This document shows positions 4,852 to 20,563 of a stretch of 32,000 nucleotides of DNA, piece after piece. The stretch is from Patescibacteria group bacterium. Its GTDB lineage: Bacteria > Patescibacteriota > Patescibacteriia > 2-01-FULL-39-33. The notes beneath the pieces are model-generated. The model searched no databases, had not been told where the DNA came from, and worked only from the letters and a program-made list of their open reading frames with translations. The stretch spans positions 180,001 through 212,000 of the forward strand of contig JBAZMW010000001.1 in NCBI GenBank assembly GCA_041649575.1, written 5' to 3'. The position numbers were made by a program, and so were the translations under genes. Within the stretch, counting starts at the first letter, position 1. Each line of letters starts with the position of its first letter.

Positions 4852-5280
4852 ATGTCAGAAGAAAAACCTGTCTCGCCGAGCCAAGGCGGAGAAGTGATTG
4901 TTCCGGAAAGGTTCAAAACACTGGTAGAGCAAATCGAAAAACTAAGCGTTTTGGATTTATCGGAATTAGTTAAGGTGTTGGAAGAAAAATTTGGCGTGTC
5001 CGCCGCCGCTCCGGTAGCCATGATGGCTGCTGGCGCCGCCGCCGCTCCGGCCGAAGCTGTCGAAGAAAAGAGCAGTTTTGATATCGAGTTAACCGCCGCC
5101 GGAGAAAACAAGATTGCCGTCATCAAGGCGGTGCGGGTGGTCACCGAACTGGGCCTGAAAGAAGCCAAAGATTTGGTGGACGGAGCTCCTAAGATGGTTA
5201 AGGAAGGCGTCAAAAAAGAGGATGCCGAAAAGATCAAGAAAGAATTGGAAGCGGCCGGCGCCACCGTCACCCTAAAATAA
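4852..5280 (+). CDS. rplL: 50S ribosomal protein L7/L12 with an N-terminal extension
   Basis: 142 aa. [19 protein letters not shown] dimerisation helix, Ala-rich hinge, C-terminal [28 protein letters not shown]...[12 protein letters not shown]. About 15 extra N-terminal residues include the repeat at 4866-4890. Confidence 0.95.
4866..4890. repeat. 25-nt G+C-rich palindromic-element core, identical to 20151-20175 in dus
   Basis: ACCTGTCTCGCCGAGCCAAGGCGGA is present at both sites. It contains the imperfect hairpin TCTCGCC...GGCGGAGA. Here it is translated as PVSPSQGG. Confidence 0.85.
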
Positions 5281-15547: not shown

Positions 15548-16975
15548 ATGCCAAAAATTTATAACACCTTAACTCGCAAAAAAGAAGAATTTGAACCACT
15601 TAAAGACAAAGTGGTTACTTTTTATCAATGCGGTCCGACGGTTTATTGGACACAGCATATCGGCAATATGCGAGCCATGGTTTTGGCGGATTTGATTAGG
15701 CGTTCGCTGGAATATTTGGGTTATAAAGTGAAGTTTGCCAGAAATTATACCGATGTCGGCCACTTGACCAGCGATGAAGACGAAGGCGAGGATAAAATGG
15801 CCAAGGCCGCTAGTAGGGAAAAATTAACGCCGGAAGAAATCGCGGATAAATATATTGGAATTTTTGAACAGGACGTGAAGGCCCTGAATTGCGAGGAGCC
15901 AACTTATGAGCCACAAGCCACCAAGTATATAAAAGAGATGCAAAAAATGGTGCAAACCTTGATTGACAGGGGCTATGCTTATGCCACTGATTTGGCGATT
16001 TATTTTGATGTTAATTATTATATTGAAAAAGGCGGGGATTATACTGGTCTGTCCGGCCAGGATTTAGAAAAAAATATTACTAATGCCGGCAAGGGCGAAG
16101 TAAGTGACAAGCAAAAAAAGAAGCCGCAGGATTTTGCAATCTGGTTTTTTAAAGTCGGTGAACACCAAAATGCTTTGCAGACTTGGGACAGCGAGTTCAA
16201 ATTGCCTGACGGGCAAAGCATAAAAAAAGAAGGTTTTCCGGGCTGGCATTTGGAATGTTCGGCGATGAACAAGGCGCTATTTGGCGATACGATTGATATT
16301 CACATGGGCGGCATTGAACATGTTCCGGTGCATCACACCAATGAGATTGCCCAGAGCGAGGCGGCCAACGGCAAGAGGTTTGTAAATTATTGGCTGCATA
16401 ATGAGCATTTGACGATTGACGGTGGAAAGATGTCTAAATCTGAAGGCACAGCCTATTCTTTGGCAGATATTAGAGCCAAGGGACTTGACTCGCTGGTTTT
16501 GAGATACTTCTTTTTGCAGGCGCATTATCGCAGCAAACAAAATTTTACTTGGAAGGCATTGGAGTCGGCCAGTGTGGCTTTGAATAATTTAAAGAATGTC
16601 ATTGCGAGGAGCAAAGCGACGAAGCAATCCCGTGGCAATATAAGCGAAGAGTTTAAACAAAAATTTACTGCCGTTTTGGGTGATGATTTCAATATTCCGC
16701 AGGCCTTATCTATTGTTTGGGAAATATTAAAATCGAATTTGCATGATGAGGACAAGGTGGCGACTATTTTGGATTTTGATAAAGTTTTGGGCTTAGGACT
16801 TGATAAAATTAAGGCAGAAGAGATTCCGCAGGCGGTAATTGATTTGGCCGAGGAGAGACTGAAAGTCAGGCAGGACAAGGATTTTAAAAAATCTGATGAG
16901 TTGAGAGAGAAGATGAAAGAGACGGGTTGGGAGATAGAGGATGAGAAGGAAGGATATAAATTAAAGAAGTTATAA
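15548..16975 (+). CDS. cysS: cysteine--tRNA ligase
   Basis: 475 aa. HIGN (HIGH) and KMSKS motifs, GWHLECSAM zinc/cysteine-binding region. Confidence 0.93.
   Translation: MPKIYNTLTRKKEEFEPLKDKVVTFYQCGPTVYWTQHIGNMRAMVLADLIRRSLEYLGYKVKFARNYTDVGHLTSDEDEGEDKMAKAASREKLTPEEIADKYIGIFEQDVKALNCEEPTYEPQATKYIKEMQKMVQTLIDRGYAYATDLAIYFDVNYYIEKGGDYTGLSGQDLEKNITNAGKGEVSDKQKKKPQDFAIWFFKVGEHQNALQTWDSEFKLPDGQSIKKEGFPGWHLECSAMNKALFGDTIDIHMGGIEHVPVHHTNEIAQSEAANGKRFVNYWLHNEHLTIDGGKMSKSEGTAYSLADIRAKGLDSLVLRYFFLQAHYRSKQNFTWKALESASVALNNLKNVIARSKATKQSRGNISEEFKQKFTAVLGDDFNIPQALSIVWEILKSNLHDEDKVATILDFDKVLGLGLDKIKAEEIPQAVIDLAEERLKVRQDKDFKKSDELREKMKETGWEIEDEKEGYKLKKL
16597..16634. repeat. short palindromic element inserted in-frame in cysS (same family as 20135-20194)
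   Basis: TGTCATTGCGAG-GAGCAAAGCGACGAA-GCAATCCCGTG. The 12-nt and 11-nt termini are identical to those of the reverse complement of the dus element. Translated as VIARSKATKQSRG. Confidence 0.8.
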
Positions 16976-17568: not shown

Positions 17569-18996
17569 TTAGTTGAGAGCGACTGCCTCCTGCCTGCCCT
17601 CGGTGCTCAGGACCACATGGTCCTCCTCGAGCCTTAGCACGGCGATGGCGGCGCTGCCCGCGCTCTCATAGGCGTGGTTCTCGTAGATCAGCCGCGGCTC
17701 CTGGCCCGGCACCATGACATAGAGCTCATAGCGTAGTTGCGGGTCGGCGATGCGGTGATCGATCTGCTCCTCGGCCACGAAGACCGCCAGGCCCAGTCGC
17801 GCGCTTATGATCCTGTGCCGTACCGACGGCGTGCGGTAGGACACTTGGCCGGGAGTCCCCATCGGCATCTGTATGACTACGCCGTACTTCTGATCCCCGT
17901 AGTCTTGGTACATCTTTGGCTTCAGGCGCCAAGATGCCATCTTTTGCGCCAGGATCTGGGCGATCGCCGCGTCCACCTCGCCCTCAAAGGCGGCCTGCTC
18001 GGTCTCGTTGAGCTTGGGCGGACTCGGAGTCGCTTCAGTCGGCTCGAAGACAAACTCGGCGATGCGGTTGCCGTACTCCTCGTTGACGAGTTCGACGGTG
18101 ATTTTCACCTGGCCGCCCCTTTCGTCAATTTGGATTTGCCCCAGGTCGTTGATGCACAAATCGTGCCGGTCGGCGCTACTGCTGTAGCGGTTGCGCCACT
18201 GCCATTCTTGCATCTGGTCTCGGCCGTGGTGGTAGATCACCACTTGATCGAAGTAGCCGATGCCGCCACTGCCACCCCACTCGCTTCGGGCTACCAGAAA
18301 CACGGCCGTGTCGGGATCGAGCACCCTGACCTTCCCGATACTGCACCGCTCCATCTTCATCAACTCCTCAATGAACAACCGGAGCCGTGCCGACACTTCT
18401 TGCCCGCCGAGTACCTCGGCCAATGCCTCCTCATGACTCAACCGCGAGTCATCCTCCAGCAATGCTTTGACGCTGGCGGCGGCTTCGGCCAGCTCTTCCC
18501 GCTTCTGCTGGATTTGGCTGGCAAACTCTTCGCCACCGAGAAGAGCCAGCGCTTGGTGTGCGTCGGAGTAGGATTGCCGCCCGATCTCGTAAGTTTCCCG
18601 CGGGAAGTTGTCGGGGGGGAGCTCTTGTACCAAACTCCTGATGCCCAACTCATCGGTCAGGGCCAGGAACTTTTCCGTGAGCTTTCTTTCACAGCAACCA
18701 CAACCATTCATGGTCGGGTCGATTGCACTGAAGGCCTCGGCGATCGCCAGCCGGACCAGGGGATCGGGCTGGGCATTGATGGCCTTGACGATCCGCCCCC
18801 GTTCCTCGGCCGGCAATTCGCGGAGGCGTTGCACATACTTCCCGCCGCGCTGGCCATCGGCCATGGTCACAGGGATGCCGGTGACCTGCTGGGCAACTTG
18901 TAGGCAGACAGACAATTCCAACTGCCGCAGTTGTCGGCCAATCTCTTCCTCCACTTTCCGCGCTTCTTTCAGCGCTCTTTCTCTTTCCTTGTTCAT
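17569..18996 (-). CDS. hypothetical protein (475 aa), island cassette 1
   Basis: I place the start at the internal ATG 18996-18994 (MNKERERALKEARK...), because GGAGGAG (19003-19009, minus) sits 6 nt upstream and the upstream ORF stops at 19019. The track's longer 509-aa form would overlap that gene. Charged coiled-coil-like N-terminus, a CGCCERK cluster and a beta-rich C-terminal half. No family recognised. Confidence 0.75.
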   Translation of the reverse strand: MNKERERALKEARKVEEEIGRQLRQLELSVCLQVAQQVTGIPVTMADGQRGGKYVQRLRELPAEERGRIVKAINAQPDPLVRLAIAEAFSAIDPTMNGCGCCERKLTEKFLALTDELGIRSLVQELPPDNFPRETYEIGRQSYSDAHQALALLGGEEFASQIQQKREELAEAAASVKALLEDDSRLSHEEALAEVLGGQEVSARLRLFIEELMKMERCSIGKVRVLDPDTAVFLVARSEWGGSGGIGYFDQVVIYHHGRDQMQEWQWRNRYSSSADRHDLCINDLGQIQIDERGGQVKITVELVNEEYGNRIAEFVFEPTEATPSPPKLNETEQAAFEGEVDAAIAQILAQKMASWRLKPKMYQDYGDQKYGVVIQMPMGTPGQVSYRTPSVRHRIISARLGLAVFVAEEQIDHRIADPQLRYELYVMVPGQEPRLIYENHAYESAGSAAIAVLRLEEDHVVLSTEGRQEAVALN

Positions 18997-19018
18997 TGTT
19001 GTCTCCTCCGTTCGTCGC

Positions 19019-19315
19019 CTAGTGCGCGAACGCGTTGAGAAACTTTGCCAGCTCCCTCGGCTCTTTCTTGGAATGCCGAAGGAATCTGACGCACGCACCC
19101 ACTAACTCTGCTCCGAAATTCTCTTCCCGGCAGGCGATAGCGTACCACCTGGCTGCCAGCGCCTTTTTGCGTTTGCCGGTCCTGGCTAGGACCAGATTAT
19201 ACGCCTTGGAAGGACTGGTAGCAGACTCGGTGAGGTTGAGCAGTTCGGGTACGGCCCAAACCGCCTTGGCGCGTGCCAATAACTCGATCAGACGCTTGAC
19301 GTCTTTTGGTGTCAT
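19019..19315 (-). CDS. hypothetical small protein (98 aa), first gene of the island operon
   Basis: Start moved to ATG 19315-19313 (MTPKDVKRLIELL...), with AAGGAG (19322-19327, minus) 6 nt upstream. Predicted helical and basic. No family recognised. Confidence 0.65.
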   Translation of the reverse strand: MTPKDVKRLIELLARAKAVWAVPELLNLTESATSPSKAYNLVLARTGKRKKALAARWYAIACREENFGAELVGACVRFLRHSKKEPRELAKFLNAFAH

Positions 19316-19371
19316 GGCTTGCTCCTTTCCTCTGTAAGGTGCTATCAAGCTGATTGCCAGCTTAACTAATA

Positions 19372-19483: not shown

Positions 19484-20563
19484 ATGAATTTTTGGAAAAA
19501 AATAAAAAAGCCCTGCCTATCCGGCAGGCAGGCGATTTTGGCTCTAGCCCCAATGGCTGGGGTTTCTGATTCGGCTTTTCGACAGGTCTGCAGAGAGTAT
19601 GGCGCCGATGTAGTCTATACCGAAATGGTATCGGCCGACGGCCTTTTTTATGATTCCAAAAAAACTTTGGAATTTTTAAAATTCAATAAAAAAGAACATC
19701 CGGTGGTAATTCAGCTGTTTGGCAAACAGTCTGAAAGATTCACTAAGGCCGCGCAAATTTGCGAGCAAGCCGGCTTTGACGGTATTGATATTAATTTTGG
19801 TTGTCCGGCCAAAAAAGTTGCTGGCCATGGCGGCGGAGTGACGCTGATGCGCGATTTGCCAAAGTGTCGAGAAATCATTGAGGCGGTTTTGGCTGGCACC
19901 AAGTTGCCGGTATCGGTGAAGTTGAGATCTAGTATTAATGTCAGGGGTTTGCCATGGCAAACCCCTGCATGCGGCAACCTGGTGACAGCTTTGGATTTTA
20001 TAAAATTTATGAAAGATTTGCCGCTCTCGGCAGTGATGATTCATGGCCGGCCATACGAAAACCCTTTCAATGCCGAAATAGATTATGAGATGATTAAGAA
20101 ATGCGTTGAATTTATAAAAAATAATTATTATTTAATGACACGGGATTGCCACCTGTCTCGCCGAGCCAAGGCGGACGCTCCGCTCGCAATGACAGCGCCA
20201 ATAGTTTTGGGTAATGGCGGTATTAAGACACCAGAAGATGCAAAAAGAATGTTGGAACAAACCGGCGCCGATGGTGTTGGGCTGGCTCGCGGGCTTTATG
20301 GCCGGCCGTGGCTGTTTCGGCAAATTAAAGACTATTTAAAGAAAGGAAAATACAGTAATCTAAAACTAGAAGAGATAAAAAAAATTATTTTAGAGCATGC
20401 TAAATTGGCTTTTGAAAACAAGGATAAACACGGCATAGTGGAATTAAGGAAGCATTTGGCTTGGTATATTACTGGCCAGCCTGGCGCCAGAGAGTTAAGG
20501 GCTAAGTTGGTACGGGTGGAAGATGTAAAAGAAATAAAAGCGATTTTAAAGTATTTAAAATAA
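19484..20563 (+). CDS. dus: tRNA-dihydrouridine synthase carrying three in-frame palindromic insertions
   Basis: 359 aa. LAPMAGVSDSAFR, INFGCPAKKV, VSVKLR and HGR motifs, plus a C-terminal helical domain. About 37 extra residues come from the insertions at 19512-19528, 19942-19967 and 20135-20194. Confidence 0.88.
   Translation: MNFWKKIKKPCLSGRQAILALAPMAGVSDSAFRQVCREYGADVVYTEMVSADGLFYDSKKTLEFLKFNKKEHPVVIQLFGKQSERFTKAAQICEQAGFDGIDINFGCPAKKVAGHGGGVTLMRDLPKCREIIEAVLAGTKLPVSVKLRSSINVRGLPWQTPACGNLVTALDFIKFMKDLPLSAVMIHGRPYENPFNAEIDYEMIKKCVEFIKNNYYLMTRDCHLSRRAKADAPLAMTAPIVLGNGGIKTPEDAKRMLEQTGADGVGLARGLYGRPWLFRQIKDYLKKGKYSNLKLEEIKKIILEHAKLAFENKDKHGIVELRKHLAWYITGQPGARELRAKLVRVEDVKEIKAILKYLK
19512..19528. 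repeat. small G+C-rich hairpin insertion near the dus N-terminus
   Basis: CCTGCC-TATCC-GGCAGG. Encodes part of PCLSGRQA, which interrupts the usual short N-terminus before LAPMAG. Confidence 0.65.
19942..19967. repeat. perfect 26-nt palindrome inside dus
   Basis: CAGGGGTTTGCCATGGCAAACCCCTG equals its own reverse complement. Translated in-frame as (V)RGLPWQTPA. Confidence 0.9.
20135..20194. repeat. 60-nt nested palindromic element inside dus (long form of the cysS element)
   Basis: ATGACACGGGATTGC...GCAATGACA. Its reverse complement starts TGTCATTGCGAG and ends GCAATCCCGTG, as in cysS 16597-16634. The core 20151-20175 is identical to rplL 4866-4890. Confidence 0.85.

Follow-up and report, generated by a model that had tools for sequence, protein, structure and literature searches.

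How can a gene carry three hairpin-like segments, all of them in frame, and still be intact? This question is raised by the tRNA-dihydrouridine synthase gene (dus) present in the 32,000-nt stretch of DNA that we analysed (hereafter the window; contig JBAZMW010000001.1, positions 180,001 to 212,000) from a Patescibacteria group bacterium. The host genome (G000) is assembled into 5 contigs that total 920 kb, at a G+C content of about 44% and a completeness of 97.9%; dus sits on a 245-kb contig, and its nearest homologues carry the names Patescibacteria or Buchananbacteria. The ORF is open and intact, encodes 359 aa, and its product matches the Dus family of Pfam (PF01207, E 2e-64). A preliminary description had proposed that three G+C-rich palindromic segments interrupt this gene, and we found the three sequences at the coordinates claimed for them. 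The gene and the segments, called here e1, e2 and e3, are the following.

19484 to 20563, plus strand: dus, from the ORF list, the Pfam Dus match, an AF2 model (mean pLDDT 85.7) and Foldseek matches to Dus structures.
19512 to 19533, plus strand: e1, a 22-nt hairpin unit CCTGCCTATCCGGCAGGCAGGC with the stem-loop CCTGCC-TATCC-GGCAGG at 19512-19528.
19938 to 19970, plus strand: e2, a hairpin whose core at 19942-19967, CAGGGGTTTGCCATGGCAAACCCCTG, is a perfect 26-nt palindrome, as had been reported.
20132 to 20194, plus strand: e3, a 63-nt insertion with borders known to ±3 nt, encoding residues ~L217-T237.

Immediately 5' of dus, an island of 58-63% G+C (17569-19348) stands out from the ~44% of the genome. 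It holds two minus-strand ORFs of 509 and 109 aa, neither with a Pfam match, and looks foreign because of this high G+C content and of these ORFs.

The dus product was aligned with its orthologues, firstly with 27 and then with 120 sequences. In comparison to the 120 orthologues it has 7, 9 and 21 additional residues at three sites, that is 21, 27 and 63 nt. As claimed in the preliminary description, all three lengths keep the reading frame and removal of the segments leaves a protein of about 322 aa (359-37 = 322). At the first site, between NFWxK and ILALAPMAG, 13 residues are present instead of a median of 6. The net insertion corresponds to seven codons, CLSGRQA (~19514-19534), placed between KKP and ILALAPMAG ahead of strand beta-1, and when these 21 nt are taken out the orthologue consensus KKPILALAP is restored exactly; e1 is missing in the closest orthologues, and likewise in 117 of the 120. 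The second site, after PVSVKLRSSI, has 16 residues instead of a median of 7, with a net insertion of VRGLPWQTP in the loop that follows strand beta-5 (PVSVKLR). At the third site, before IVLGNGG, we counted 38 residues instead of 12 or 17, and this long form is found in no other protein among the 120; e3 is placed between the helix 201-214 and strand beta-7. The matches obtained with this Dus in 30 related genomes stop at residues 208-213 and restart at 237-241. The closest orthologues have none of the three segments, and an A/T run immediately precedes each of the three inserts.

The second site is a hot spot. Inserts are present there in 32 of the 120 orthologues, with up to 59 residues and with quite different sequences, among them other repeat types such as TGTCAT arms reading NVIAS... 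or VIPAKAGIQ. The orthologue of G007 carries a head-to-head arm dimer at this site, and in a relative of another family (L020, G030:C10) the loop occupied here by e2 contains, in frame, a palindrome of 41 nt that is near-perfect and unrelated (TACAAGGGGCACCCTTGTCG/TCGACAAGGGTGCCCCTTGTA).

Each segment belongs to a repeat family, as described below, and each is also a length difference from the orthologues, so that chance does not account for them. Comparison with orthologues and genomes shows that the dus segments are insertions, each coming from a different dispersed repeat family. The palindromic segments of the preliminary description are indeed repeat elements, but they belong to three families and not to one. 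The alignments show e2 and e3 as insertions and not as lineage-typical Dus sequence, and e1 as absent from nearly all orthologues.

The largest of the three segments belongs to a family dispersed through the genome. By BLAST and nhmmer searches on the genome, we observed that positions 20136-20194 are one arm of a TGTCAT/ATGACA-tagged repeat family (GGGATTGCC...CTCGCAATGACA), whose arm form is GGGATTGC...CTCGCAATGACA or, more generally, GGGAT[TC]GC...CTCGC[AG]ATGACA. A leave-one-out nhmmer profile made from 7 other copies scored e3 with E 3.4e-14. The family has about 28 genomic copies: 12 are intergenic and occupy short inter-ORF spacers, and 16 are in frame in 13 genes, which encode a methyltransferase, FemAB, UvrA, CysS, a radical-SAM enzyme, two GT4 glycosyltransferases, PheT, Tgt, WecG, the CCA-adding enzyme, PolA and Dus. 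All 16 intragenic copies are open in the frame of their host gene, and no gene broken by a copy was seen among the ~28. The peptides that recur in the arms are GIATS...LPRND and RDCH or LPPVS...SLAMT, with VIA[SR]...KQS on the opposite strand.

An arm consists of a (C/T)GTCAT tag (TGTC in most copies, CGTC in one, at C2:19564), a stem ATTGC/GCAAT whose first pairs are A-T, a loop of at least 12 nt that can hold nested mini-hairpins, and a tail CCC or CCA. The 12 nt that adjoin the ATGACA tag contain 76% A+T, in comparison to a background of 55.5%. Arms also form head-to-head dimers (C1:226454-226535, C1:173868-173960 and C5:38119-38219), which end in TGTCAT...ATGACA; e3 is a single arm. A MITE would have terminal inverted repeats together with a target-site duplication, and the latter is not established for e3. 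A 7-nt direct repeat, AATGACA, is present at 20134-20140 and 20188-20194, but its right copy belongs to the consensus of the element and we therefore make no such claim. In addition to the arm in dus, the window contains the following related features.

20151 to 20175, plus strand: inner mini-hairpin module ACCTGTCTCGCCGAGCCAAGGCGGA, 25 nt, nested in the e3 arm.
4866 to 4890, plus strand: free copy of this inner module, detected by nhmmer; it falls within the N-terminal codons of rplL (4852-5280) and encodes PVSPSQGG in frame.
16597 to 16631, minus strand: arm of the e3 family that cysS (15548-16975) carries in frame, reading NVIARSKATKQSR.

The rplL ORF encodes ribosomal protein L7/L12 (Pfam Ribosomal_L12/L12_N). 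The cysS product, a cysteinyl-tRNA synthetase, matches tRNA-synt_1e (E 2e-83), and the arm lies in opposite orientation just past the catalytic domain. The 25-nt module is also found alone at C2:219153 and C4:128221/35641, as well as inside 8 other arms. The opposite-strand intragenic arms of the genome, five out of five, share one reading frame (VIAS/VIAR/VIPS). All three frames are stop-free in these arms, and the shared frame hints that a bias of frame or of target may exist.

The genome contains two single-domain ORFs of 96 aa with a GIY-YIG domain (PF01541 above cut-off), at C2:91603-91893 and C1:11955-12245. The nearest PDB relatives of their products are the UPF0213 proteins 1zg2 and 1ywl, and NCBIfam has no name for them. 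Both ORFs are flanked by inverted arms of the e3 family. The same layout was observed in relatives: when we looked for [TC]GTCA[TC] upstream and for its complement downstream, each at a distance of at most 130 nt, tags were present on both sides of 15 of the 22 GIY-YIG homologues (at least 46% identity) and at 0 of 807 control positions. The stems of the arms near GIY-YIG genes vary by lineage, for example TGTCATTCCCGCG...GGGAATCC. In the genomes compared, these results show that the e3 family is tied to small GIY-YIG genes, in an SsnA/NTS-like layout. As a side observation, the units made of an arm, a GIY-YIG ORF and a second arm are compact in the host genome (374-429 bp; C1:11867-12295 and C2:91549-91922). 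At C1, the N-terminus of a radical-SAM gene is encoded by the left arm of the unit, and a methyltransferase gene starts with the ATG within the CAATGACA of the right arm.

The e1 unit recurs as well. A second e1 core (CCTGCCTNNCCGGCAGGCAGGC) is present in polA of the same genome (C4:66070-66091), in frame and reading LPAGKAG, and CCTGCC-N(2-8)-GGCAGG hairpins are found at 6 loci, in comparison to ~0.15 expected by an estimate from composition. Of 121 class genomes searched with at most one mismatch, 22 contain the core, and a single genome can have as many as 11 copies; a control with the reversed pattern gave 0. Some copies are nested within TGTCAT arms. Since the sequences around the copies are unrelated to each other, it is the hairpin itself that makes up the unit, and these counts show that this 22-nt hairpin is dispersed through the class.

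Two distant orthologues, P0080 and P0085, carry an e1-type insertion at the identical nucleotide position, and in a tree of 120 sequences they are not sister to this Dus. In one of the two, the stem has changed on both sides in a compensatory way, from CCTGCC/GGCAGG to CCGGCC/GGTCGG, and the peptide is altered. Random insertion with subsequent selection fits e1 poorly, because two distant orthologues that are not sister to this Dus have exactly the same site; the shared site points either to repeated insertion at the same place or to recombination.

For e2, a second copy was found neither in the host genome nor in 300 genomes of the class, where up to 3 mismatches were allowed. Its 20-nt core GGGTTTGCCATGGCAAACCC is present in other phyla: we counted 47 stretches with it in the species-genome collection and at least 80 in metagenomes; the chance expectation for the genome collection was estimated at ~1 match. 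About 30 of the metagenome contigs with this core are from one Anaerolineae genome and the rest from Melainabacteria, Deinococcales, Chitinivibrionales and others. In Anaerolineae bacterium F18_66 (L062-L106), we observed that the core is included in a repeat of ~100 nt (GATTTTTAGGGTCAGATAGGCATGATGTAG-core-CCCGCAACCAACCGTAAAAATCGGGCTTGCC), which is present on ~30 contigs, often at contig ends.

In other phyla, most cores have the flanks TGTAG...CTACA, by which GTAG REPs are recognised. The flanks of e2 in dus are TGTCAG...CTGCA and those of the Melainabacteria copy (L070) are GCAG...CTGC; 30 identical bases are common to these two copies. Judged from these matches, e2 is a GTAG-REP-like palindrome that recurs in other phyla. 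GTAG-tagged REPs and REPINs are mobilised by RAYT transposases (Bertels & Rainey 2011, PMC3116915; Di Nocera 2013, PMC3733652), and intragenic GTAG REPs are documented (PMC3733652). The likeness lies in the GC-rich palindrome of 26-33 nt and in the GTAG...CTAC tag of the cores from other phyla. Unlike the GTAG REP/REPIN-RAYT system, the e2 of dus has a tag that is not GTAG...CTAC and is single in its genome, in which a search for Y1_Tnp/RAYT (PF01797) gave no match (97.9% completeness). In four genomes of other phyla that contain the e2 core, Y1_Tnp genes are present and none of them is flanked by the core. A genome-wide census of perfect hairpins was also carried out; it gave mostly terminator-like hairpins flanked by A/T and was of no help in explaining e2. 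The genome-wide counts thus bear out the idea of repeated elements for e3, with its ~28 copies, and for e1, with polA and the class genomes. For e2 no second copy exists in this genome, but its core is repeated in other phyla.

The folding of the three segments was compared with that of shuffled sequences. Only e2 folds better than the shuffles (z -3.5, 0/200 shuffles), with a predicted RNA hairpin of -23.5 kcal/mol, which is very stable; for e1 (z -0.74) and e3 (z +0.26) there was no such advantage. Hairpin stability was therefore dropped as a criterion for e1 and e3. The term "nested palindrome", used for e3 in the preliminary description, is accurate as far as short nested inverted repeats are concerned, but it is an overstatement since e3 is weakly palindromic and shows no folding excess.

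The segments were also mapped on a structure, as had been suggested. In the AF2 model of Dus, generated from the alignment, confidence is high outside the segments, and the stretches of low pLDDT are the segments themselves: residues 11-13 (e1, pLDDT below 50), ~151-165 (e2) and 215-238 (e3, 50-68). Each falls between regular elements of secondary structure. The best Foldseek matches of the model are the solved Dus structures 1vhn, 3b0v and 6ei9. From the topology of the TIM barrel, we take e1 and e3 to adjoin the N-terminal ends of strands, remote from the active site, and e2 to be in the beta5-alpha5 loop, presumably on the catalytic face of the barrel. This loop is the one that varies most among orthologues. 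Most likely, the segments are translated as floppy surface loops, which is proposed from the open frames and the integrity of the gene.

Taken together, dus was probably hit three times by GC-rich, stop-free hairpin repeats of three families, which were kept as tolerated loops. The gene survives since each insertion is a whole number of codons within a tolerant loop. Arms of the e3 family would spread as non-autonomous derivatives of the GIY-YIG unit, via single-stranded DNA cut adjacent to the tag, with SsnA-like nucleases as candidates for the cut. Insertions that break the frame or add a stop would be purged by selection. The surviving copies would be transcribed and translated into disordered surface loops of the TIM barrel, e1 before beta-1, e2 between beta5 and alpha5 and e3 between alpha6 and beta7, which would have no needed function of their own.

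Could the segments be ordinary, lineage-typical and variable GC-rich Dus sequence that was never inserted? The lengths of sites 1 and 2 do vary among orthologues and the e1 peptide PCLSGRQA is also found in P0080 and P0085; however, every segment matches a repeat family outside dus, the closest orthologues have none of the three, e3 is in this protein only among 120, and P0080 and P0085 are not sisters of this Dus, so that this assumption is largely refuted and very improbable. An artefact of assembly or binning, with chimeric reads joined at repeats, would agree with the frequent position of repeat cores at contig ends in other assemblies. It is next to impossible here, since the gene lies intact on a 245-kb contig and keeps its frame through all three segments. 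The sequences on either side of each segment align with orthologues, and the inserts have similar in-frame counterparts in 12 other genes and in independently assembled orthologues.

If, on the other hand, the segments were removed by RNA excision, translational bypass or protein splicing, a Dus of normal size, 322 aa, would result. The very stable RNA hairpin of e2 is in favour of this reading, but segments of 21-63 nt are far too short for group I/II introns or inteins. No ribozyme or splicing domain is recognisable in segments that encode only 7-21 aa, and an Rfam search of the whole window gave no match in dus. In addition, each of the 16 intragenic e3-family copies is open in frame and none was seen to break a frame, which is expected only if they are translated. 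We consider such a removal hardly to be expected. That the hairpins were co-opted at the DNA or RNA level (pausing of transcription or translation, mRNA stability, SsnA-type control of recombination at dus), or that the loops modify Dus, is distinctly unlikely. Distant orthologues have retained the e1 hairpin at one and the same site through a compensatory change that alters the peptide, SsnA/NTS pairs modulate transformation in Neisseria (PMC11893778), and e2 presumably lies on the catalytic face. Yet the inserts of site 2 differ wholly in sequence and length among orthologues (0-52 additional residues), e3 is unique to the dus of this genome, and the same families occur in many unrelated genes and spacers; as for the lone compensatory change, it may reflect a different family variant that was inserted independently.

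It is possible, though unlikely, that the insertions were targeted and not random, very short hairpin units (~22-60 nt) of unrelated families going into preferred positions of single-stranded AT-rich DNA, perhaps by the action of SsnA-type nucleases. Targeting fits e1 at an identical position in non-sister dus lineages and the inserts of site 2 in 32 of 120 orthologues; it also fits the A/T runs before all three inserts and the 76% A+T next to the tag of the arms. Another fitting observation is e2, an orphan REP that has 30 identical nt in Melainabacteria and occurs in a genome without RAYT match; it hints that foreign hairpin DNA may have been taken up.

How do these elements compare with known ones? 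SsnA is a single-domain GIY-YIG ssDNA nuclease whose gene is flanked by its own hairpin repeats, NTS (CGTCATTCCCGCGMAVGCGGGAATCYRG), and a site-specific ssDNA nuclease activity was demonstrated for such SsnA-like GIY-YIG proteins in 2025 (PMC11893778). NTS and the other Ssn-related motifs (SRM) are equivalent to the CGTC-tagged REPs of Di Nocera et al. 2013. These REPs, which include dRS3 of Neisseria and RPE-4/-6 of R. conorii, have CGTC at one end, a stem whose first two pairs are A-T and a CCA-like tail; they are mostly head-to-head dimers and are without a dedicated transposase, and intragenic copies of both CGTC and GTAG REPs are on record (PMC3733652). The arms resemble these elements: they are short oriented hairpins with a (C/T)GTCAT tag, A-T first pairs and a CC(C/A) tail, they frequently form head-to-head dimers, they are found as inverted copies around a gene of ~96 aa for a GIY-YIG protein, and their copies are both intergenic and in frame within housekeeping genes. 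They differ by a tag that is mostly TGTC and not CGTC, by a stem ATTGC/GCAAT with a loop of at least 12 nt instead of the published 8-9-bp stem and 4-5-nt loop, and by the proportion of intragenic arms (16/28, more than half). The host also differs, since Patescibacteria are unmentioned in PMC11893778, and the nuclease is here a putative one. The published SRM pattern HGTCWYN(0-2)YYVSBRHN(0-5)WNVSBRGN(0-2)RNCYNB is not enriched in the host genome (3 matches vs 0-5 in shuffled genomes), and none of its matches in this genome is at an arm. The arms are therefore treated as a divergent variant.

The preliminary description had also drawn a parallel with Rickettsia palindromic elements (RPEs), which is apt. 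RPEs have been placed in the CGTC-tagged REP superfamily (PMC3733652), which e3 resembles. They are dispersed palindromic repeats that have entered numerous unrelated genes of a reduced genome without loss of the reading frame (Ogata et al. 2000, cited in PMC3733652 and PMC10969869). In the same way, the e3 family is in frame in many unrelated ORFs (16 copies in 13 genes) with none disrupted, and palindromic repeats dispersed in a reduced genome are read through as extra peptide. RPEs have a length of 100-150 bp and are not known outside Rickettsia. The units described here, which are compared with RPEs by their published descriptions, have 21-63 nt and belong to three families and to another phylum. 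No publication on palindromic repeats of this in-frame kind in Patescibacteria came up in our literature search. This dus is a new host and a variant of the known REP/RPE phenomenon.

Proteins of Patescibacteria often differ from those of their relatives by unexplained extra loops. With one gene, we can see that such loops can derive from at least three distinct families of hairpin repeats. To our knowledge, there is so far no known mobilising enzyme for CGTC-type REPs and RPEs. For this reason, and since more than half of the copies are intragenic, this tiny genome is well suited to testing the GIY-YIG link. If the insertions are indeed targeted, this could be the long-missing route of mobilisation for CGTC-type REPs and for RPE-like in-frame elements. 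Masking such units would improve the annotation, alignment and structure prediction of CPR proteins.
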